A stretch of DNA of 64,000 nucleotides from Pseudomonadota bacterium. Lineage in GTDB: Bacteria > Bdellovibrionota_C > UBA2361. Positions 28,176 to 63,076 of the stretch are shown piece after piece (positions within the stretch are counted from its first letter, which is position 1; the number at the start of each line of letters is the position of its first letter). The position numbers and the translations under genes are program-made. Where the stretch lies: positions 219 through 64,218 of the forward strand of contig JBJOHD010000098.1 in NCBI GenBank assembly GCA_046047875.1, written 5' to 3'. Below the pieces are notes generated by a model that was not told the origin of the DNA, made no database searches, and worked only from the letters and a program-made list of their open reading frames with translations.

Positions 28176-29024
28176 CTATTTCATCAAAAGGAGGCTCAGT
28201 GCCATCACGAACATACCGGCACAGAGACCGAGGAGGCTATCGTGCCCCTTCCCGTAGGCGCGGCTCGTGGGCAAAAGTTCGTCAAGACTCACATACACCA
28301 TAATCCCCGCAACTCCCCCAAAAAGATATCCCATGATGTGCGATGGAATCCCCCCGTTATCACCACCAAGGAAAAATAGTATCCCCAGATATCCGAGCAG
28401 CGCCCCGAGCGGCTCAAAAAGCCCGCTCAGAAAGGAGTAGATAAACGCCTTACGGCGATTTCCGGTCGCGAAAAATATCGGCACCGAGACGCTCATTCCC
28501 TCTGGGATATTGTGAATGGCGATCGCGATGGCGATCGCTGCACCAACTTTTGGATCCTCAAGAGCGGAGAGAAACGTGGCCAGCCCCTCCGGAAAATTGT
28601 GGATGCCGATCGCGAGCGCTGTAAAAAGACCGACTCGAAAAAGTTTGTGATGATCGCCGTACGCAGGAGGAGCTTCTCCGTCTTTGTGGAGCGCCGCTGA
28701 GGCTGACTCGGACGGCATCTCGTGGGGGTTTTCAGCGGATGGAATAAGATTATCGATAAGAGCGATGAGCAGGAGTCCTCCGAAAAATGAGGCGACACCG
28801 ATCCAGGCTGACCAATAATCCCCATACTCCGCCCGAAGCGCGGCGGTCCCCTTCGGCATAATCTCCATAAACGAGACGTAAAGCATCACCCCGGCGGAGA
28901 AGCCTGTAGAGATCGAGAGAAATCGGTAACTCGAGCGCTTCGCGGCGAATGCGATAGCACTCCCGATCCCGGTCGCGAGTCCCGCAAAAAGGGTGAGGCC
29001 GAAGGCGAGAACGACGTTGCTCAT
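28176..29024 (-). CDS. ZIP family metal (zinc) transporter, ZupT-like
   Basis: HNFPEGLA and HNIPEGM motifs in TM helices; a His-rich central loop ([28 protein letters not shown]). Confidence 0.8.
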
Positions 29025-29220: not shown

Positions 29221-29281
29221 CTAGTCCCTCGACAAATAAGTTTTTTCACTCCGGCGGAGTGAAAAACTAACTCACCACTAG
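29221..29281 (+). repeat. MITE-like structured repeat, copy 1 (internally truncated)
   Basis: ctagtccctcgacaaataagttttttcactccggcggagtgaaaaactaact then joins directly to ccactag; it shares the 5' half and the last 7 nt with copies 2 and 3. Confidence 0.7.
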
Positions 29282-29548
29282 CAGCTCTCCGTGGGTTCTC
29301 CCACTTCTTCGGATGTGGCGATATCAGACCCAACGCTCCGCTCGGTTGATGCTTCGCCCCCCTGCTCACACCCTCGATCGATTCGCCTGCTTTCAAGCAC
29401 TTAAAAGACCGTGCGTCTGCACCTCGAATCGCTTGCTCTGCGGCGGCGCCCGCAAACACCCCACTCAACGCCGACCGAAAAGTTGGGGGTCTCAGGTGGA
29501 GGAATATGCTAGCCTAGCGGGGGCAATTATTTTGGCTGTAGATCAATC

Positions 29549-29962
29549 ATGATGCTTGTTACCCGCGAGATCCACTTCAACGCTGCTCATCGGCTCCACA
29601 ATCCGGCGAAATCCGAAGAGTGGAACCGTCAGATGTACGGGCTCTGCAATTCTCCAAACTGGCACGGACATAACTATCGGCTCGAGGTGACCGTACGGGG
29701 CGATATCGACCCAGAGACCGGATACGTAATCGATCTCGGAGTTTTAAAGAGGATTTTAGAGGAGGAGATCGCTGTCGAATGCGATCACAAGAACCTCAAC
29801 CTTGATGTCCCGTTTCTCAGCGGTGTCATCCCGTCGACCGAGAATCTCGCTCTCATCTTTTGGGGGCGTCTCGAAGGGAAGCTCCCCCGCGGCAAACTAT
29901 TTTCCGTGAAGCTCTTTGAGACCGAGCGGAACTGGGTCGAATATCGGGGCCCGAACACATAA
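29549..29962 (+). CDS. queD: 6-carboxy-5,6,7,8-tetrahydropterin synthase / 6-pyruvoyl-tetrahydropterin synthase family
   Basis: 137 aa; Cx5HGH motif (CNSPNWHGHNY); N-terminal EIHFNAAHRL. Confidence 0.8.
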   Translation: MMLVTREIHFNAAHRLHNPAKSEEWNRQMYGLCNSPNWHGHNYRLEVTVRGDIDPETGYVIDLGVLKRILEEEIAVECDHKNLNLDVPFLSGVIPSTENLALIFWGRLEGKLPRGKLFSVKLFETERNWVEYRGPNT

Positions 29963-30070
29963 GAAAGATGCAAACGTGCCCCAGTGGGCCGGGGATACAC
30001 GCGTCAAACAACCTTGAATACGCGAAGGCTCCGCCGTTGTAGAAACCGGAGGATTCAGCGAAAATACACC

Positions 30071-30194
30071 GAGGACTAGTCCTTCAACAAATAAGTTTTT
30101 TCACTCCTGCGGAGTGAAAAACTAACTGAGGACTAGTGGTGAGCATAAATTCTAGTACCTTGCAGGTGAATGAATTTAATGGTCGAACCACTAG
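30071..30194 (+). repeat. MITE-like structured repeat, copy 2 (full length, ~124 bp)
   Basis: Imperfect terminal inverted repeats (ACTAGTCCTTCAAC ... GGTCGAACCACTAG); an internal perfect 11 bp hairpin TTTTTCACTCC-tgc-GGAGTGAAAAA; a second inverted pair ATAAATTC...GAATTTAAT. Confidence 0.8.
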
Positions 30195-30210
30195 AGAGCG
30201 CAAAGTTTAT

Positions 30211-31221
30211 ATGCCGCAAAAGAAAAAATCAGCTACCACGAAAAAAGCCCGAGATCCGGAGCTCTACCTCCACCATCACAACGGAGGAAAGAAGCCGAAG
30301 CTCGACCGCTCGTTCGACGCTGAGTTTCGTCCATCGAAAAAATATTACGCGTCGCTTCCCGACATGATGCTCGCTGAGCACGCGATTCAAGGGGCGAACG
30401 TCCCGATTCATCAAGTTGGTGTCTCAAATTTCAAACTCCCGCTCTCTTTTGCGCGCCGACACGGCCGGGCGTGGCTTCTTGAGGCGGCGGTCACCGGTTC
30501 GGTTTCGCTCCAGGCGAATATCAAAGGGATCAATATGTCCCGTATCGTTCGGAGTTTTTACGATCATCGCGCGGAGACGTTTTCCCTCGATACTCTCACA
30601 GCTATACTCGAGACGTACCGAAAGAAGGTTGGGAGCCTCGATGCCCGCCTCAAAGTGCAGTTTTCGTATCCGATTCTGCAAACGAGTCTCCGGAGCAATC
30701 TGAAGGGATATCAGTTCTACCGTTCGATCTACGAAGCGACGATCGATCGGAGGAACCGGGTGCGCCGTTTCATTACCTTTGACTTCGTCTATTCGTCGGC
30801 GTGTCCGTGCTCAGCCGAGCTCACCGAGCATGCGCGGGATACCCGGGGCCGCTACGGCATCCCCCACTCCCAACGGAGCAAGGCGCGCATTCGTCTCGAG
30901 ATCGCTCCAGGAAAAAAATTATGGATAGAAGACCTACAGGAGCTGTGTCTCGAGGCGCTTAAAACCGAGACACAGGTCATGGTCAAGCGCGAGGATGAGC
31001 AGGCTTTTGCAGAGATGAACGGCGCTTACATAAAGTTCGTAGAGGATGCGAGTCGGCTCCTCTTCGGTGTCCTCAACCGCGATAAGCGGATTCGTGATTT
31101 CGAGATAGCATGCTCCCATCTTGAATCGCTTCACTCCCACGATGCGGTAGCGGCGATCTGCAAGGGTATCCCCGGGGGCTTCACCGCCGACTTCACCGAC
31201 TTTAACGGGCTCGTCTGCTAG
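30211..31221 (+). CDS. folE2: GTP cyclohydrolase FolE2/MptA (GTP cyclohydrolase IB)
   Basis: [30 protein letters not shown] fits the FolE2 N-terminal region; a Cys-containing SSACPCSAE motif. The ATG at 30211 is preferred because the longer ORF start (30136) lies inside repeat copy 2. Confidence 0.6.
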
Positions 31222-31230
31222 GGGAAAACG

Positions 31231-31938
31231 ATGCGAAGTAAAGTTGCGCTCGTAACGGGAGCAGGCCGGGGGATCGGGAGAGCTGTGGCGCTCGCCCTCG
31301 CAGAAGACGGGTATCGGGTAGCGCTCGTCGCCCGGTCGGGTACCGAGCTCGAGCAGGTGGCGCGAGAGATCTCGCCAGCGCTTGAGACATCACGGGTGCG
31401 CCTTTTCCCCGGCGACGTATCGGAGGCGGCGCTCGCGCCGAGGATAGTGGACGAACTCGTCGCCGCATGGGGGGGAGTGGACATCCTCTTTAACAACGCA
31501 GGGGTCAATCCGAAAGGGAGCTTAGAGCTCTCAGTAAACGATTTTGAACAGATGCTCGCGGTAAACGTGACGGGAGCTTTCTCGTTCGCAAAAGCGGTCG
31601 TTCCGATCTTTAAACAGCAAAGCCGCGGTTATCTCTTCAATATCTCCTCGGTGTGCGGTAAACACGGATTCCCCGGTGTCGGGGGGTATACCGCCTCTAA
31701 ATTCGCGGTCCTAGGGCTCTCTGAATGTCTTTACCGCGAGCTTCTTCCTCTGGGAATCTCAGTCACCGCGATCTGTCCGAATTGGGTCGATACCGCGATG
31801 GCGCACCATTCGCCGGTAGCGCCCGGAGATCGCATCCAAACCGACGACCTGGTTAAAACGGTGCGGTACCTCTTGAGTCTCGGAAAGGGTGCCACGGTGC
31901 GGGAGATCGTCGTGGACTGCCGGTACGACCCGCTGTAA
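31231..31938 (+). CDS. SDR family oxidoreductase (possible pteridine/sepiapterin-type reductase)
   Basis: VALVTGAGRGIG; NNAG; S...YxxxK (YTASK). It sits immediately downstream of folE2 and queD/PTPS. Confidence 0.7.
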   Translation: MRSKVALVTGAGRGIGRAVALALAEDGYRVALVARSGTELEQVAREISPALETSRVRLFPGDVSEAALAPRIVDELVAAWGGVDILFNNAGVNPKGSLELSVNDFEQMLAVNVTGAFSFAKAVVPIFKQQSRGYLFNISSVCGKHGFPGVGGYTASKFAVLGLSECLYRELLPLGISVTAICPNWVDTAMAHHSPVAPGDRIQTDDLVKTVRYLLSLGKGATVREIVVDCRYDPL

Positions 31939-32073
31939 TAGAGTTCGCTTCGGGGCTCGAACGCGGGCTCGTGCCAGAGAAAAAACCGGCAACGAAGCCT
32001 TTTGTTCACTGACCGCCATCACTGCGAAAACCGCCGTGTGAGATAAACTAAGCCCCGTGCCGTTTTACGGAGG

Positions 32074-33132
32074 GTGCGGTCGGTGCTTAGGGGGGCGTTT
32101 TACCTTCTTCTTGCGGGAGTCCTCTTTCTCTGTGGCTGTACGCCGCGCTCGACTAAAGTACAAGTGGGCGATCCCCCTTCGCGAGCTGAGCTTGAATCGC
32201 TCGCTGCGCCGATCGCCCTCTACCCCGACCCCTTGCTCCAACGGGTCCTCACCGCTGCCACATTCCCCGATCAGATCCTCGATGCAGCGCTCTTTATCGA
32301 GCGGGGGGGTGAACCGAGCGAGATCGCTCGAAAGCCGTGGGAGCGATCGGTGAAGTACGTGGCAAACTATCCGACCATCCTCACCTCACTCGCCGACGAT
32401 ATCGACCGCACCGTTCGACTCGGAGCGGCGTTTACCGAAAGCCCTGACGAGCTCCGAGATTGTATTCAGACCCTCCGTCGGCGCGCGGTCGAGCACGGAA
32501 ACCTTAAAAGCTCGGCGTATCAGACCGTTCTTGCGAGCGGACCTACCGATGGCGGCGCGACAATTCTGATCGAACCGACCGACCCCGCGGTGCTTTACGT
32601 TCCAAGAAACACAACAACGCTCATCTACGAGCGACCTATCGCGGATCCGGCTGCGCTCTTCCTGCCCCTCGCCACGTTCGGGCTCGGTGTTGCGCTCGCT
32701 GCCACACTCGATCAAGACGACTTTTACTATTACGGCGGCCCGTTTTACGGCCCCGGATTTTGGTACGGTGGGCCGATCTATCGCCGCTGGTACACCTATC
32801 GCCACGATCGCTGGAGACACGATTACGATTACGGAAGAGGTCACTACAGAGATTGGGGGAAGCACCGCCACGAGCTTCACCAAAAGCACTCCGACTGGAG
32901 GCACCATCGGGCCGCTGGTGGAGGCTACCATCGAAGCCAGGGGCCACCCCCCGATAGCCGCGCCTCGTTTCGCCCCGCACCCCACCGCTCCGATCGCTCG
33001 ACCGGGGCCCCCTCTCACCGTGGCGGCGATCGAGGGGCACGCGGCAGCTCACCCCATCGGGGTGGTCACGCCCACACCGGGAGCTCGAGCGGGCGGGGAT
33101 TCGGGGGGCATCGGGGTGGAGGAAGACACTAG
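32074..33132 (+). CDS. DUF3300-like lipoprotein with a His/Arg/Gly/Tyr-rich C-terminal tail
   Basis: Lipobox LFLCGC; LESLAAPIALYPDPLLQRVLTAATFPDQIL matches the DUF3300 N-terminal motif. The C-terminal ~130 aa is low-complexity (HRGG, YRHDRWRHDYDYGRGHY). Confidence 0.55.
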   Translation: MRSVLRGAFYLLLAGVLFLCGCTPRSTKVQVGDPPSRAELESLAAPIALYPDPLLQRVLTAATFPDQILDAALFIERGGEPSEIARKPWERSVKYVANYPTILTSLADDIDRTVRLGAAFTESPDELRDCIQTLRRRAVEHGNLKSSAYQTVLASGPTDGGATILIEPTDPAVLYVPRNTTTLIYERPIADPAALFLPLATFGLGVALAATLDQDDFYYYGGPFYGPGFWYGGPIYRRWYTYRHDRWRHDYDYGRGHYRDWGKHRHELHQKHSDWRHHRAAGGGYHRSQGPPPDSRASFRPAPHRSDRSTGAPSHRGGDRGARGSSPHRGGHAHTGSSSGRGFGGHRGGGRH

Positions 33133-33248
33133 TCCTTCGACAAACGAGTTTTTTCACTCCCGCGGAGTGAAAAACTAACTCAGGACTAGTGGTGAGCATA
33201 AATTCTATTACCTTGCAGGTGAAAGAATTTAATGGTCGAACCACTAGT
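33125..33248 (+). repeat. MITE-like structured repeat, copy 3 (full length)
   Basis: Near-identical to copy 2, with hairpin loop cgc; it ends ...GGTCGAACCACTAGT. Confidence 0.8.
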
Positions 33249-44049: not shown

Positions 44050-44343
44050 CGGTTGCTTCAAAAACCACTCATAGGTGCGCCAGGGATGACCCGGTCAACG
44101 CGAAGCCCTCGATCCATGCGGTGAATGTGGATTTTAGGGGTCCCCGGCGAGCCTTAAGCGACTCCAAAATTAGCGGGCTTTGTCGATGATTTCGGCGAGC
44201 TCAGCCGAACGGAGCCCATTTTTAAAAACACTAGCAGTGATTAGTTCGACCTAGAGAGCGCAACCTAACGCCACTTCGACTCTTCGTGGCGAAGTCGAAG
44301 TTTTCAGGACTTTTCAGGTCAAACTAGAGTAGTAAAAAAGAAA

Positions 44344-59190: not shown

Positions 59191-59736
59191 TTAGGCCGGA
59201 AGAAGACCCTCTAACTCCGCCCGATAAAACGCCGCGATCGATTTTGCGTCGTTCAATTCCCCGCTTTTTATCGCTGCGTGCACCGCTCCCACCGACAACG
59301 GCACGACCTCGATGATTTCATCCTCGTCTTGGGGGGCGGATGCGGGAGAGAGCTCGGTCGCCACAAACAGGAACTGCTTCTCATCACAAAATCCAGGAGC
59401 GGGGTAGAGAATCCCAAGCTCTCGCATCGCACCGGCCTGGTGGCCGACCTCTTCAACGATCTCGCGTCGAGCGCACTCAAGGGGGGCTTCCCCCATCTCA
59501 AGTGTTCCGGCGGGGAACTCGAGTATCGCAGCACCGAGGGCGGGTCGAAACTGGCGAATCATTAGGAGCTCGCCGCTCGGACTTACGGGGAGAATCACGA
59601 CCGCACCGGGATGGCGCACCGCTTCAAAGAGGGTGGTGGAGCCCGGCTCAAGCTCAAGCACGCTCTTCTCCACGGTAAATTTCTTTCCGGAGTAGACCTC
59701 CGAGCGCTCAAGGACCCGTGGCTGCAATTTCATCAC
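59191..59736 (-). CDS. NUDIX hydrolase (ADP-ribose pyrophosphatase-like)
   Basis: Nudix box GTLEMGEAPLECARREIVEEVG (Gx5Ex7REUxEExGU). Confidence 0.8.
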   Translation of the reverse strand: MMKLQPRVLERSEVYSGKKFTVEKSVLELEPGSTTLFEAVRHPGAVVILPVSPSGELLMIRQFRPALGAAILEFPAGTLEMGEAPLECARREIVEEVGHQAGAMRELGILYPAPGFCDEKQFLFVATELSPASAPQDEDEIIEVVPLSVGAVHAAIKSGELNDAKSIAAFYRAELEGLLPA

Positions 59737-60806
59737 CCGTCCTGCGCGGTTTTAAAATTGTACAACCGGAGTCCAAGAACGACGGCAAGCGCCAAGGTCA
59801 ACGCCCCGAAGAGCACGTGCAAGCTGGTCAAAAACGGCTCCCGACGGCTCATCACTGCGACAATACCGAGGGTGAACTGCACAGCGACGACCGCGCTCAG
59901 AACGAGCGCCGCACGGGACACCCGCGGACCAGCCTCGCTCCACCGTCGAAGCTTGTAACCGAACGATAAAATTACGGCGGCGACAACGATACCCCACAAA
60001 CGGTGAAATAGGTGGAGTGATATCTGCACCGAATCAACCGGAGCAAATCCGAAGCCCCGGCGCACCTCGTTTATCCCGGCGATCCAGTCCGCCGCAAAAG
60101 AGGGCCACCATACCCCACCCATCGTCGGGAAATCTGGAATCGCGAGTCCCGCCCCCGCATGGCGCATCACCGCGCCGACGATAAGCTGAATATAGATCAC
60201 GGTGAGGACGAGGAGACTCCCTCGAAAATAACGGGACGATGAAACGGCGGGAGCCTCCCCTTGCCGCACAAACCACTCCTTCGATTGACTGTACGCCAAG
60301 ATGATAGTGACGATAAAAAACGTTTGCCCGAGAACTCCGTGGGCCGCGGAGATGGCGGTCGGCAGTTGATAAATCACCGTGAGTCCCCCGAGCACCCCTT
60401 GAAGGATCACCATCCCGAGCGCCGCCGCGGCGAGCCACCGCACCCATCGGCGCCCCTCAACAAACCAGATCCACGCGGCCAATATAACGGTCAACAGACC
60501 AACGAACGAGGCTAAGAGACGGTGTACATGTTCGAAAAATATCGGGCCGATCCAGAGACTCGGGGGAAAGAGAAACATATTCTCCCCGTACGAGGTCGGC
60601 CAGTCGGGGACCGAGAGCCCCGCGTCGTGGCTTGTGACCAGCGCACCCTTGTAGATGAGGAGCGCCACCCACACGGCGACGAAGAGGGTATAACGGGCCA
60701 GACCACGCCGAAACCGGATCGCCCGGCGGGGATTTGCCGTAGAGGGAGCAGCGGATATTGCGTCGTGAAGGGTGTTCATAGCGCCCAAAGTATCGAAAGA
60801 GAGCAC
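59733..60806 (-). CDS. ctaA: Heme A synthase (COX15/CtaA family)
   Basis: 357 aa, 8 TM helices, His residues in TM2/TM6-equivalent positions, typical CtaA length. Confidence 0.65.
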   Translation of the reverse strand: MLSFDTLGAMNTLHDAISAAPSTANPRRAIRFRRGLARYTLFVAVWVALLIYKGALVTSHDAGLSVPDWPTSYGENMFLFPPSLWIGPIFFEHVHRLLASFVGLLTVILAAWIWFVEGRRWVRWLAAAALGMVILQGVLGGLTVIYQLPTAISAAHGVLGQTFFIVTIILAYSQSKEWFVRQGEAPAVSSSRYFRGSLLVLTVIYIQLIVGAVMRHAGAGLAIPDFPTMGGVWWPSFAADWIAGINEVRRGFGFAPVDSVQISLHLFHRLWGIVVAAVILSFGYKLRRWSEAGPRVSRAALVLSAVVAVQFTLGIVAVMSRREPFLTSLHVLFGALTLALAVVLGLRLYNFKTAQDG

Positions 60807-60957
60807 CGGTTATGTCAACGTCCCGCCCCACGATCGGACCGACTTGACCGCCAAAAGCTCCCCGGAAAGCGGTAACTTAGCTAACTGATTCCGCGATGAG
60901 GCACGCCGTGACCCGGCAGCGGGGTCCGCGTGTTGCCTTAAACCCGCAATTCATTTA

Positions 60958-61518
60958 ATGTGCTTTCTACCCATTTCGGGGTCGGACGGGTCCCGGGCGA
61001 GCTTCCCCCCAGAAGGCGCGCTGCAGACCCGCCGATTTTTTTCTTGGGAGAGTCCGACAGTGCCATCACTCCAACACGTTATCGTTGCCGTCTATAGTTT
61101 CGCCCTCACACTCGCGGTTCAGCCGGCCCACGCGGATACCTGTGCCGAGATATGTGCTGGTCTCGAAATTCAAATCGCTCGCGCAATGCACCGCCGCTCC
61201 GGCTTTGAAGTTCGGGGGCAGCTCGCGAACCGCACCCTCACCCGCCGGTTAAATCGCGATATCGCCATCATCGAAAGGCGAATCACCGCGACCAAGCGCC
61301 TCGTCGCTCGTGCGAGTGGAACGACGTACGAGGCCCGTGCCGAACGGCGACTTGAGGATCTATTGCTGCGGCGACAAGCGATCCTCGTCACCGCACGGCG
61401 TCGGGCGAACCGGCTAGCGACCGGTCTACAGTCGGCACTCCACCGAATCGACGCACGTATCGCTGCCTTCCACCAAGACGCCGCTACGCATGGGTGTCCG
61501 GTTGAACCGTCCGCATAG
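60958..61518 (+). CDS. Hypothetical secreted helical protein
   Basis: An internal signal-like segment VIVAVYSFALTLAVQPAHA suggests a later start; Arg/Ala-rich helical. Confidence 0.35.
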   Translation: MCFLPISGSDGSRASFPPEGALQTRRFFSWESPTVPSLQHVIVAVYSFALTLAVQPAHADTCAEICAGLEIQIARAMHRRSGFEVRGQLANRTLTRRLNRDIAIIERRITATKRLVARASGTTYEARAERRLEDLLLRRQAILVTARRRANRLATGLQSALHRIDARIAAFHQDAATHGCPVEPSA

Positions 61519-61561
61519 GTGAGCGACCGTACCTACGGAAAATCTCCCGATATCGGGTAAG

Positions 61562-61679
61562 TAGTGGTTCGACCATTAAATTCTTTCACCGGCAAGGTAA
61601 TAGAATTTATGCTCACCACTAGTCCTGAGTTAGTTTTTCACTCCGCGGGGGTGAAAAAACCTATTTGTCGAAGGGCTAG
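61562..61679 (-). repeat. MITE-like structured repeat, copy 4 (inverted orientation)
   Basis: The reverse complement aligns over ~118 bp with copy 3, including the hairpin (one G-T mismatch) and the TIR-like ends; 65 nt upstream of hldD. Confidence 0.8.
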
Positions 61680-61746
61680 CCCCGCCTCTGCCGTTTCGTC
61701 GCTCGTTGTGGTATAACGCATCCGGTATCCGTCTAAGGGAGATGCC

Positions 61747-62721
61747 GTGATTATCGTAACCGGCGGAGCCGGCTTCATCGGAAGCGCGGTCATCGCTCAA
61801 TTAAACAAAGAGGGGATCCGCGATATCCTCGTCGTCGATTCGCTCGGCGGGGGGGATAAGTGGAAGAATCTTCGGAACCTCTCGTTTATCGACCTTATCC
61901 ATAAAGATCGATTCCATCAGCTCGTGCACGCAAACGAAGCTCCGGTCGCCCGCGCGGTTATCCACATGGGCGCCTGCTCGTCGACAACCGAGACGAACTG
62001 CGACTATCTCCTGACGAATAACTTTCATTACACCCGCGATCTTGCTGAGTGGGCGTTAAAACATCGCTCGCGCTTCATCTATGCGAGCAGTGCAGCCACG
62101 TACGGCGACGGTGCGCTGGGATACGACGACGATCTTCTGGTCATCCCTCAGCTCAAGCCGCTCAATATGTACGGGTATTCCAAGCAACTCTTCGATCTCT
62201 GGGCGCTCGGCGGGGGGCATTTTAAGGAGATCGTTGGGCTTAAGTTTTTCAACGTTTTTGGGCCAAACGAGTACCACAAAGGGGCGATGCGCAGCGTCGT
62301 CCACAAGGCGTTCGGCGAGATCTCCGAAACCGGAAAGATGCGCCTCTTTAAGTCGAACGAGTCACGCTTCCCCGACGGGGGGCAGATGCGCGATTTCGTG
62401 TATGTGAAGGATTGCACCGCGATTATCTCGTGGTTGCTCCACAATCCGAAGGTCAACGGCCTTTTCAATCTCGGCACTGGGATGGCACGCACCTGGAACG
62501 ACCTCGCGAAAGCGGTGTTCGCAGCGATGGGGAAGCCCGCCCAGATCGAATACATCCCGATGCCCCCGCAGCTGGCACGGCAGTATCAGAACTTTACCGA
62601 GGCGACGATGGCGCGACTTATCGCCGCGGGATGCCCAACGCAGTTCCACTCCCTCGAGAACTCGGTGCTGGACTACGTAAAAAACCATCTTCAGGGGAGA
62701 AATCCTTACATCGCCCCGTAA
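61747..62721 (+). CDS. hldD: ADP-L-glycero-D-manno-heptose-6-epimerase
   Basis: IIVTGGAGFIGS Rossmann; YGYSKQLFD (YxxxK); 324 aa. Confidence 0.8.
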   Translation: MIIVTGGAGFIGSAVIAQLNKEGIRDILVVDSLGGGDKWKNLRNLSFIDLIHKDRFHQLVHANEAPVARAVIHMGACSSTTETNCDYLLTNNFHYTRDLAEWALKHRSRFIYASSAATYGDGALGYDDDLLVIPQLKPLNMYGYSKQLFDLWALGGGHFKEIVGLKFFNVFGPNEYHKGAMRSVVHKAFGEISETGKMRLFKSNESRFPDGGQMRDFVYVKDCTAIISWLLHNPKVNGLFNLGTGMARTWNDLAKAVFAAMGKPAQIEYIPMPPQLARQYQNFTEATMARLIAAGCPTQFHSLENSVLDYVKNHLQGRNPYIAP

Positions 62722-62846
62722 AAACTCCCCTGACGGTCGGTTTTTCCGGAGGCCACCAAAGGCCAGGCTGGCCCTAACATATTGTAATCCCTATACATTC
62801 GCGCAAGTCAGCGATCTGAGGGCGCTGGGAACAGGTGGCCACGGAT

Positions 62847-62875
62847 TTGATTTAGGCGTTGAAAACATCTATAAA
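62847..62875 (+). promoter_or_regulatory. Putative sigma70 promoter (TTGATT-17-TATAAA) for rpmH
   Basis: -35 at 62847-62852 and -10 at 62870-62875, 40 nt upstream of the rpmH ATG. Confidence 0.35.
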
Positions 62876-62914
62876 ACCCCACCGACATTAAGTTAATTCG
62901 CCGAAGGCTGTACC

Positions 62915-63076
62915 ATGAAGCGCACATATCAACCGAGCAGAAAAAGCAGAAAGACCACCCACGGCTTTCGGAAGAGAATGTCCACCGCAGGAGGACGGAA
63001 GGTGTTGAACGCCCGCCGTGCTCGCGGCCGCAAGCGGATCTCGGTGACCGCGCCCCGCAAGGGTCACTATCGGTAG
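62915..63076 (+). CDS. rpmH: 50S ribosomal protein L34
   Basis: [44 protein letters not shown]: canonical L34. Below the ORF-track size cut-off; found by reading the sequence. Confidence 0.85.

Follow-up and report, generated by a model that had tools for sequence, protein, structure and literature searches.

The structured repeats around queD and folE2 are genuine and belong to a mobile element of 119 bp, non-coding and not described before, recovered here from a 64-kb stretch of DNA (the window, meaning the whole stretch that was analysed). With a probability of roughly 60%, the family is a non-autonomous DNA transposon (MITE) that depends on an IS630-like or IS5-like DDE transposase acting in trans. 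The element is an ordinary kind of genomic parasite and not a new regulatory system. A preliminary description had proposed an unrecognised, MITE-like structured family with terminal inverted repeats, lying intergenically around queD-folE2. This view is upheld: the copies occupy 22 unrelated loci in two genomes, carry constant CTAG flanks, are missing from orthologous sites in relatives, and match no curated RNA family, plasmid or phage.

Copies of the element in the window

An nhmmer profile search of the window recovered three full copies (E = 1e-43 to 8e-45) and one short copy (E = 1.5e-15), and neither this search nor a repeat search revealed any further copy in the 64 kb. The repeats lie where they had been reported, with offsets of at most ~5 nt, and score far above chance. 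Their exact boundaries were set by alignment with 18 additional copies from a related MAG, giving the following positions:

29221–29281, + strand: solo A-type unit of 61 bp, CTAG to CTAG (nhmmer; CTAG at both ends)
30076–30194, + strand: full 119-bp copy in the queD-folE2 spacer (nhmmer and alignment)
33129–33247, + strand: full 119-bp copy 3' of the DUF3300 gene (nhmmer and sequence)
61561–61679, − strand: full copy in the CtaA/epimerase spacer (nhmmer and alignment)

The window copies are 92–94% identical to one another, in agreement with the >90% given earlier, and the fourth, inverted copy that had been placed near 61562–61679 is present on the minus strand. The copy at 29221, previously called truncated, is instead a complete single unit, half the size of the element and bounded by CTAG at both ends. 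Of its 61 positions, 57 agree with the left half of the 119-bp form, and it lies in the divergent spacer between a ZIP transporter gene (28176–29024, −) and queD (29549–29962, +). The copy in the queD-folE2 spacer starts 113 nt past the queD stop codon and ends 16 nt ahead of the folE2 ATG (30211). Further downstream, the stop codon of the DUF3300 gene (32074–33132) is the TAG (33130–33132) of the left CTAG of the copy at 33129–33247. The minus-strand copy lies between CtaA (59733–60806, −) and the epimerase gene (61747–62721, +), whose start follows after 67 nt; no other copy is as mutated, one flank reading CTAC and hairpin A containing a mismatch.

Architecture of the element

Each full copy measures exactly 119 bp from CTAG to CTAG. 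The boundary is sharp on both sides in 21 of the 22 copies (4 in the window, 18 in the MAG), and 43 of the 44 flanks are CTAG. The GC content of the element is 41%, against ~58% for the genome and 55–61% for the window, and this AT-rich composition looks foreign to the host. Coding capacity is absent, the sole long ORF that overlaps a copy being an artefactual 5' extension of folE2. The parts of the element are illustrated by the copy 3' of the DUF3300 gene:

33129–33147, + strand: left terminal inverted repeat, with arm homology reaching element position 29
33150–33174, + strand: hairpin A, an 11-bp stem TTTTTCACTCC / GGAGTGAAAAA with a 3-nt loop (fold)
33186–33189, no strand assigned: central CTAG common to both inverted units, within the near-palindrome CTCAGGACTAGTGGTGAG (sequence)
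33198–33233, + strand: hairpin B, ATAAATTCT...AGAATTTAAT, with an inner ACCT/AGGT stem (fold)
33229–33247, + strand: right terminal inverted repeat TTAATGGTCGAACCACTAG (arm comparison)

The imperfect terminal inverted repeats noted at the outset are present in the window copies (CTAGTCCTTCGACAAATAA and, as reverse complement, CTAGTGGTTCGACCATTAA); they match at 16 of 19 positions, and at 24 of 29 when extended. In the consensus of the related MAG, the left arm is CTAGTCCTTCGACCAATAA, which matches the right arm at 16/19. The arms are inverted, face outward and span ~29 nt, with the consensus CTAGTssTTCGACCAwTAArTTyTTTCAC. The internal hairpin (TTTTTCACTCC-NNN-GGAGTGAAAAA) had been described as perfect throughout; this is correct for three copies, and the copy at 61.6 kb carries one T.G mismatch. 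Its loops are GGC, TGC and CGC as reported, while the supposed fourth variant, 'gcg', is CGC read from the opposite strand. The second inverted pair, ATAAATTC...GAATTTAAT, was also found.

As a dimer, the element joins two diverged hairpin units of ~61 nt in inverted orientation at a common central CTAG. The homology of its halves becomes apparent when one of them is inverted (score 21, against −10 ± 4.3 for shuffles), and each unit, 61–62 nt in length, folds back on itself. The bases just inside CTAGT vary by unit type and are complementary within the unit (CCT/AGG, GGT/ACC, GCCCC/GGGGC), and it is exactly at these bases that the outer ends of the dimer mismatch. In addition, solo units with terminal repeats of a mere 8–10 bp are also flanked by CTAG on both sides. 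Judged from the sequences, the within-unit complementarity next to CTAGT suits a required hairpin better than a site bound as double-stranded DNA.

Distribution in related genomes

Among 185,579 species-representative genomes, the core motif matched only one other genome, a Lake Mendota 'Bdellovibrionota' MAG (JBILDU01) with 18 dispersed copies, one per locus. The flanks of the 4 window and 18 MAG copies show no similarity to one another. Eight of the 16 complete MAG copies are identical to the consensus and the remainder are 1–3 bases off, a distribution indicating a recent burst; a diagnostic C14A change unites the three full window copies, which are 3–6 bases off the consensus. As a lineage-specific marker with a very recent burst, the element could be used to follow the dynamics of strains through the Lake Mendota time series. 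Furthermore, several MAG contigs break within the repeat, which explains the break points of contigs in these MAGs.

Older CTAG-flanked hairpin units, of types A, B, Y and Z, surround the element in the window's relatives. Six of the 18 MAG copies share a flanking CTAG with an older, diverged CTAG-flanked unit. The related genome L040 possesses solo units of its own along with an inverted dimer built on a common CTAG, and arrays of units in alternating orientation occur in both L010 and L040.

Insertion sites

Three syntenic sites are empty in relatives with the same gene order, namely the queD-folE2 spacer, the CtaA-epimerase spacer and the L002 site. For instance, relatives with at least 90% identical FolE2 have a queD-folE2 spacer of 59–118 bp without the element, and the relative L042 has a syntenic CtaA-epimerase spacer that likewise lacks it. 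These empty sites are not base-exact, because the relatives compared for presence and absence are only ~70–80% identical in DNA; no base-exact empty allele was recovered for any site, and a scan for the empty form of the 33129 site gave nothing. At a paralogous empty site (L009 versus L010), the alignment is gap-free only when one CTAG is kept (score 82, against 78 and 76), which fits a putative net insertion of 115 bp that leaves one CTAG; the comparison fits a single pre-existing CTAG. Because the target is always CTAG, duplication of TA, duplication of CTAG and a candidate mechanism without duplication, in which one CTAG would come from the target and one from the element, fit the copies equally well.

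The copies are extragenic, mostly just downstream of genes, and their sites are biased toward stop codons. At 7 of the 19 insertion CTAGs the TAG ends an open frame of at least 150 codons, compared with 9 of 144 other CTAG sites (p = 6e-4), and the excess persists among sites outside long frames (p = 0.006). Four of the seven genes are confirmed by Pfam. Since CTAG contains TAG, an element can insert on a C-TAG stop codon with no change to the protein, and a target of this kind lets the element sit flush against a coding region (7/19 copies). An unchanged protein, combined with the elimination of insertions that fall within genes, would account for the many surviving copies found exactly on stop codons.

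Proposed mechanism and alternative explanations

The element is shorter than ~300 bp and non-coding, ends in terminal inverted repeats, occurs as dispersed copies and is present or absent between relatives, all of them properties of MITEs. In the favoured scenario, a transposase encoded elsewhere would bind the arms, excise the element and reinsert it at 5'-CTAG-3', duplicating either the central TA (IS630/Tc1-mariner style) or all four bases (IS5-group style); either mode would regenerate CTAG on both sides. IS630 goes into 5'-CTAG-3' at the TA, which it duplicates (Tenzen and Ohtsubo, 1991, as cited in PMC2170065), and MITEPsy1 is an IS5-family MITE that duplicates CTAG (PMC3189936). Each insertion creates a new CTAG beside the resident copy, which offers later elements a landing site at the edge of older ones. 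Because the target is regenerated on both sides, elements can stack, and two stacked elements can together make a better transposon. The dimer likely originated by the landing of an element at the edge of an older one, and with two good arms it would have amplified recently in the lineage of the related MAG and earlier in the genome of the window. No transposase gene or longer element with these arms was found in the window and ~133 kb of MAG loci, and nine matches, all chance-like, came from a metagenome scan for arms lacking the MITE body. Further points against a MITE are the unit-specific complementarity next to CTAGT, the CTAG-flanked solo units with short terminal repeats, and the failure to recover a base-exact empty allele.

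The lack of a DDE parent in the window, the MAG loci and the metagenome scan also favours the main alternative, a REP/REPIN-like element, in which the ~61-nt hairpin unit would be the module and the 119-bp form an inverted doublet. An HUH tyrosine transposase (RAYT or IS200/IS605-like), encoded by a single-copy gene, would recognise the hairpins, cleave at CTAG and move the element as single-stranded DNA, with no target duplication. Such an origin would suit the inverted doublet of self-folding units with a common tetranucleotide, the accompanying solo units, the closing stems that co-vary between unit types, the extragenic positions mostly just downstream of genes, and the alternating arrays of L010 and L040; REPs, too, often form close inverted pairs downstream of genes (PMC3733652; PMC3116915). 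However, a REP is defined as a palindromic unit of 20–40 bp with an unpaired GTAG or CGTC tag at one end (PMC3733652), and although the present units do form close inverted pairs foldable into a larger structure, they are 61 nt long and have CTAG on both sides, inside the closing stem. The element is moreover AT-rich relative to its host, and its outer arms, matching at 24/29, resemble a classical terminal inverted repeat. The HUH + Y..NP motif pair occurs in no open frame of the ~197 kb scanned, which consist of fragments where a single-copy gene is easily missed. Orientation is unbiased with respect to local GC skew (11/21), and, by a weak test, the four bases preceding the hairpin foot on its 5' side lack the complementarity to CTAG that the published IS608 guide rule would require. 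We regard this alternative as possible, though doubtful. Quite unlikely is its extension, by which the 119-bp element and the older CTAG-flanked units (A, B, Y, Z) would form a third, 'CTAG-tagged' REP-like superfamily beside GTAG and CGTC, with the hairpin unit as module, the inverted doublet as replicating form, stop-codon CTAGs as preferred landing pad and, as mover, an HUH or uncharacterised enzyme in an uncultured Bdellovibrionota/Oligoflexia-like freshwater lineage.

It is very improbable that the repeats are a host-selected RNA or DNA signal (mRNA 3' stabiliser, attenuator, terminator or protein-binding site), kept near genes as useful and spread by recombination, not transposition, even though the folds predicted for them are highly stable (−40 to −49 kcal/mol, z = −3 to −7), 7/19 copies directly follow stop codons and the antisense strand gives a weak terminator-like match. 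Sharp CTAG boundaries at unrelated loci are a product of insertion, not of selection; orthologous positions are empty in relatives that keep the same operons, and with respect to the gene upstream, copies occur in either orientation (of the stop-codon insertions, five are sense and two antisense). The conserved stem with a varying loop, noted at the outset, is no evidence of a selected structure, as the copies are near-identical and show zero compensatory changes. The label 'bidirectional-terminator-like' fails as well. An intrinsic terminator has a U-run after the stem, and a bidirectional one has an A-run before and a T-run after it, whereas here both strands read T-run, stem, A-run, the opposite arrangement. 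The sense strand has no U-tail, and the terminator scan flags hairpin A on the antisense strand only, a weak match that rests on a separate, interrupted T tail. In the Rfam search, only tRNAs reached the gathering score, and a permissive search gave chance-level miRNA/snoRNA matches (E ≥ 0.96). Integron attC sites or cassette boundaries, with queD and folE2-SDR-DUF3300 as mobile cassettes, are suggested by three same-orientation copies in 4 kb with genes between them, and by a length of ~120 bp and imperfect palindromy resembling Vibrio VCR-type attC. This reading is effectively refuted by the dispersal of the copies (18 in the MAG, one per locus and not arrayed), by the queD-folE2-SDR genes in between, which form a contiguous operon conserved in many repeat-free relatives, and by ends that do not fit the RYYYAAC / GTTRRRY core sites; no integrase is found among the annotated neighbours.

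Relation to known elements

Among the systems closest to the proposed MITE, MITEPsy1 of Pseudomonas syringae (IS5 family, from ISPsy2) shares a length of ~100 nt, insertion at CTAG with the tetranucleotide on both sides, a copy number of few to tens and a lineage-restricted distribution, and its terminal inverted repeats are 18 nt long (PMC3189936). It differs in having an identified parent IS, no reported two-hairpin dimer architecture, and a looser target (YTAA too), whereas the present element has CTAG at 43/44 flanks. Its repeat GGAAGGTCTGAAAAAGCC, the sole IS5-group sequence compared, is unrelated to the arms described here. IS630/Tc1-mariner elements have the same CTAG context, and their transposases bind arms of 20–30 bp. 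RUP of Streptococcus pneumoniae, a non-coding derivative of ~107 bp, is thought to be moved in trans by IS630-Spn1. In the present case, neither an IS630-type transposase nor a long element that matches was found, nor any similarity to a record searched.

Correia/NEMIS elements of Neisseria are intergenic, ~100–150 bp long, with terminal inverted repeats, TA flanks and hairpins, and are often co-transcribed with their neighbours; they are not known to have an autonomous parent. By description, Correia elements differ in their 26-bp repeats, IHF sites, promoter elements and hundreds of copies per genome, whereas no sigma-70-like promoter was found in or beside the present copies. REPINs/BIMEs, which are RAYT-moved REP doublets, share inverted hairpin doublets with a conserved tetranucleotide, solo units, extragenic or gene-3' sites and alternating arrays (PMC3116915; PMC3733652). 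Compared with these, the unit described here is two to three times the REP length, has CTAG at both ends and is AT-rich, and no RAYT gene was found.

The queD-folE2 neighbourhood

Around queD-folE2 the copies are most probably passengers. Their transcription would put two stable hairpins into the mRNA; any effect on the expression of neighbouring genes is putative. There is no sign that they regulate the pterin/queuosine genes, knowledge of which is unchanged. The spacer copy had been said to overlap a longer candidate folE2 start. That GTG (30136) does lie inside the element and, for this very reason, the longer ORF is an artefact; the JGI start is at 30211, and the false long folE2 start is removed.

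Copies in the window and their neighbours

The repeats around queD-folE2, described preliminarily as MITE-like, are very probably some form of non-autonomous mobile element, and the best-supported model (probability about 0.6) is a MITE moved by a DDE transposase. Sequence reading, repeat detection and an nhmmer profile of the full copies were concordant on four copies in the 64-kb window, namely three full ones (E = 1e-43 to 8e-45) and a single short one (E = 1.5e-15), and neither repeat detection nor the profile found further copies there. Copy boundaries were set by aligning the copies with their flanks and then with 18 further copies from MAG JBILDU01, by which each full copy was found to be exactly 119 bp long. 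CTAG stands at both ends of every copy except the window copy at 61.6 kb, one flank of which has mutated to CTAC, and the sequence outside the flanking CTAGs is unrelated between copies.

Repeat copies and neighbouring genes in the window (protein genes from Pfam and ORF calls)
28176-29024, minus strand: ZIP transporter
29221-29281, plus strand: short copy, 61 bp, in the ZIP/queD divergent spacer
29549-29962: queD/PTPS
30076-30194, plus strand: full copy, 119 bp, in the queD-folE2 spacer, its end 16 nt upstream of the folE2 ATG
30211-31221: folE2
31231-31938: short-chain dehydrogenase (SDR)
32074-33132: DUF3300
33129-33247, plus strand: full copy, 119 bp, exactly on the DUF3300 stop codon
34016-34088: tRNA (Rfam, 71.8 bits)
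59733-60806, minus strand: CtaA
61561-61679, minus strand: full copy, 119 bp, 67 nt upstream of the epimerase gene
61747-62721: epimerase

The tRNA gene follows the 33.1-kb copy at a distance of about 770 nt, and a JGI contig from Lake Mendota, in which part of the window occurs a second time, stops just past this gene (window 34114). In addition, the 13-mer CTAGAGAGCGCAA directly to the right of the queD-folE2 copy (30191-30203) recurs at 44252-44264, immediately following a CTAG-16 nt-CTAG stretch (44232-44255). Matches of this kind are expected by chance at about 4e-4 among the CTAG sites of the window, and the recurrence could represent a footprint, a remnant or a target context common to both sites.

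Architecture and wider family

The element is built from two related halves. Its left half (1-61) is homologous along its length to the reverse complement of the right half (58-119), with a half-to-half global score of 21 versus -10 +/- 4.3 for shuffles and a central CTAG common to both. The terminal inverted repeats reported in the preliminary description are present, the outer arms being identical at 16/19 positions and at 24/29 when extended, as is its second inverted pair. Since each half is self-complementary (CTAGTCCT/AGGACTAG around hairpin A on the left, CTAGTGGT/ACCACTAG around hairpin B on the right), the predicted folds consist of two separate hairpins (-40 to -49 kcal/mol, z = -3 to -7). 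The 11-bp stem of hairpin A is perfect, as had been stated, in three window copies and carries one T.G mismatch in the 61.6-kb copy.

The short copy at 29221-29281, initially taken to be truncated, has CTAG at either end and is identical to the left half of the element at 57/61 positions. It could be a full copy with a 58-bp internal deletion, which predicts the same sequence as a solo unit; the solo-unit reading is preferred because further solo CTAG-flanked units exist. Using a profile of the element's arm, older and diverged CTAG-flanked relatives were found, which share the core (C)AATAAGTTTTTTCAC with the arm and include solo hairpins of about 50-55 nt (e.g., L040 12903-12954, CTAGTGCCCC...GGGGGCACTAG), a two-armed element of about 105 bp (Y2) and an inverted pair of units with one common CTAG, the last two also in L040. 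This locus, from a relative of the window's genome, carries no copy of the 119-bp element within 21 kb.

Old CTAG-flanked units (L040, related genome; all others, MAG JBILDU01)
L004 2477-2510
L005 3620-3645
L007 98-128
L009 7851-7899
L010 3962-4003 and 3766-3794
L011 5565-5622 and 6679-6705
L014 5851-5882
L015 7737-7763
L018 2787-2817
L040 12584-12957

The young element has a flanking CTAG in common with an old unit in 6/18 MAG loci (L007, L009, L010, L011, L014 and L018). Such stacking is expected, because each insertion regenerates CTAG on both sides, and the 119-bp dimer would most simply have originated as an inverted pair stacked at a CTAG with two good arms. That stacked units become a better transposon is a tidy idea, unsurprising to a specialist. 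Several old units (L004, L007, L014, L015 and L018) are continued by a common CCTGAGAGCCGGTCCGG motif.

Evidence of insertion

Comparisons with relatives and within the MAG point to insertion. The queD-folE2 spacer measures 248 bp in the window versus 15-118 bp, without the element, in relatives with the same queD-folE2-SDR operon, whose FolE2 is 78-91% identical in the homolog search and at least 90% identical for cluster members fetched later. Furthermore, the related locus L042 has the gene order of the window from CtaA and the epimerase onwards (68-85% DNA identity), is similar to the MnmE region of MAG locus L002 as well, and lacks the element in both spacers; between CtaA and the epimerase, homology picks up 7 nt past the element's end. 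The sequence that the element splits in MAG locus L009 is unbroken in L010, a locus of the same MAG, and a gap-free junction is obtained only when exactly one CTAG is kept (score 82 versus 78 and 76). With one CTAG left in this alignment, the net insertion is 115 bp, to be read either as TA + 113 bp or as CTAG + 111 bp. The exact empty allele of the 33129 site, sought in metagenomes as the two flanks separated by 2-6 nt, gave 0 matches.

Other features of these regions were also observed. The CtaA-epimerase spacer (60807-61746) is 940 bp long in the window versus 457 bp in L042 and holds, beside the 119-bp element, a 186-codon ORF (60958-61518) that matches nothing in Pfam. Window 62839-63075 (237 bp), located between the epimerase gene and yidC, is 85% identical to L042 7187-7423, the flanking genes being 68-74% identical, and may be the rpmH/rnpA region. 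A promoter-like stretch, CTTGAAAATAnCC...CCTATAnGATTATTCC, is conserved 5' of a phosphoribosyltransferase gene (L002 5552-5990; L042 15165-15237). Between this stretch and the gene, L002 has about 330 bp extra that include the element and a second repeat family, the latter starting about 125 nt downstream of the stretch.

Proposed mode of mobilisation

Under the DDE model, a CTAG-targeting transposase supplied in trans would mobilise the element. There are two published precedents. According to Tenzen and Ohtsubo (1991), as cited in PMC2170065, IS630 targets the TA of 5'-CTAG-3'. MITEPsy1, an IS5-family MITE of 100 nt with 18-nt repeats, duplicates CTAG or YTAA (PMC3189936). The cognate transposase was not found in the window, in about 133 kb of MAG loci or in a metagenome arm scan. 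No arms occur in the window and the MAG loci beyond the ends of MITE copies. The metagenome scan, aimed at recovering the parent IS or deletion variants, looked for arms that continue, at positions 107, 109 and 111, into bases other than those of the MITE; its 9 matches, of unrelated GC content and without a second arm, were judged to be chance.

The failure to find a DDE parent in the sequences searched also agrees with the main rival, a REPIN-like single-strand (HUH/RAYT) mechanism, as do the hairpin units, the inverted doublets, the solo units, and closing stems that vary between unit types and remain complementary. This mechanism is considered clearly less likely than the DDE model. Against it, the unit measures 61 nt versus 20-40 for REPs, and the CTAG tag stands at both ends versus GTAG or CGTC at one (PMC3733652). 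Moreover, the element is AT-rich, its outer arms match at 24 of 29 positions, and the motif pair of HUH/Y1 transposases was absent from the ORFs of the window and the MAG loci (about 5% of a genome). Orientation relative to GC skew, used as a proxy for strand-specific, single-strand insertion, was unbiased (11/21). An integron-cassette reading was rejected: the operon is conserved without the repeats, copies in the MAG are scattered, and the element's ends do not conform to attC core sites.

Insertion sites and regulation

After the copies had been removed in silico, their sites were compared with the other CTAG sites of the same DNA. The TAG closed an open frame of 150 or more codons at 7/19 element sites versus 9/144 other sites (Fisher p = 6e-4), and at 7/15 versus 9/71 when only sites outside long open frames were considered (p = 0.006). 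The DUF3300 stop TAG (33130-33132), for example, is part of the left CTAG of the 33129-33247 copy. Pfam confirms four of the seven genes concerned (DUF3300, TerB, a dockerin protein and an SLT-LysM protein), and the element lies in sense orientation in five cases and antisense in two. The three sites 'inside' long frames comprise two putative frames and one spurious folE2 extension, whose candidate start, the GTG at 30136, falls within the element and is artefactual. The pattern fits CTAG target specificity together with removal of insertions that do harm; it may also reflect a genuine preference for the 3' ends of genes. Landing on stop codons is a tidy observation, unsurprising to a specialist.

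The hairpin had been called bidirectional-terminator-like, a reading that is rejected: on both strands a T-run precedes the stem of hairpin A and an A-run follows it, and a terminator scan flags hairpin A on the antisense strand only, via a separate, interrupted T tail (ACTTATTTGT). As the sense strand is unflagged, the three sense copies at queD-folE2-DUF3300 give operon transcripts no terminator-like signal. The scan of copies found no sigma-70-like promoter, and nothing in the sequence indicates that the copies regulate the pterin genes. The Rfam comparison, also proposed preliminarily, matched the element to no family: at gathering score, the whole window and the 18 MAG loci yielded only tRNAs, and a permissive search with one element copy gave chance-level matches only. 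The 19 full copies hold 25 substitutions altogether, so that a covariation test of the hairpins is not meaningful; with none of these changes compensatory and no Rfam family, a conserved-RNA reading is not supported.

Distribution and age

One scan with the hairpin-A core (24 specified bases) over 185,579 species-representative genomes gave 18 matches, all in MAG JBILDU01, a 'Bdellovibrionota bacterium' from Lake Mendota, and none of the 18 loci overlaps the window outside the repeat. One copy, used as a blastn query, matched no plasmid or phage, and viral contigs scanned with the right arm gave 0 matches. The sequence family is previously undescribed, its kind being well known; as far as these collections show, it is confined to two related uncultured freshwater genomes.

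All 18 MAG copies are full dimers, on 14 contigs, two being cut by contig ends. Among the complete copies, 8/16 are identical to the consensus and the remainder differ by 1-3 bases, which points to a very recent burst. All three full copies of the window have the diagnostic change C14A in common, are 3-6 bases off the MAG consensus, and form an older, separate sub-lineage. Between window and JBILDU01, element copies are 95-97% identical, and the only comparable genes, those of the close relatives represented by L034, L040 and L042, show about 70-81% DNA identity to the window. If JBILDU01 is as distant as these relatives, a horizontal move or recent activity in both lineages would be indicated.

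Synteny with L042 suggests that the two host genomes are relatives. Their labels, 'Pseudomonadota bacterium' for the window's MAG and 'Bdellovibrionota bacterium' for the MITE-rich MAG, disagree. The nearest named FolE2 homologs belong to Opitutaceae/Puniceicoccaceae (64-70% identity), and those of the MAG's MnmE to Oligoflexia/Bdellovibrionales/Deltaproteobacteria MAGs (about 56-62%); the pterin operon may have had a history of its own.

Other repeats and mobile genes

In relatives (L034 14511-15464, also L035-L037), two successive ORFs, HTH_Tnp_1 and then DEDD_Tnp_IS110, lie about 3 kb downstream of queD-folE2-SDR, where the contigs stop; the pair has no relation to the element's arms. The second small repeat family, of about 50-70 nt (...GAGCTCAGCCGAACGGAGCCC...), is found 7-30 nt from the element or from a related unit in L002, L016 and L040, and its window copy is isolated. 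The MITE-bearing MAG holds further unrelated small repeats, including a hairpin family, GCATTGCCCATA...TATGGGCAATGC, and its genome appears rich in short repeats.

Other short repeats
Window 44173-44219; L002 5727-5800; L016 7270-7339; L040 12848-12899: GAGCTCAGCCGAACGGAGCCC family
L019 1603-1642; L008 3300-3345: GAGCTCAGCCGAACGGAGCCC family, weaker
L004 2402-2473; L014 5918-5955; L018 5125-5192: unrelated small repeats
L004 2014-2179 and 5558-5723: 166-nt two-copy repeat
L017 19-252 and 1391-1624: 234-nt two-copy repeat
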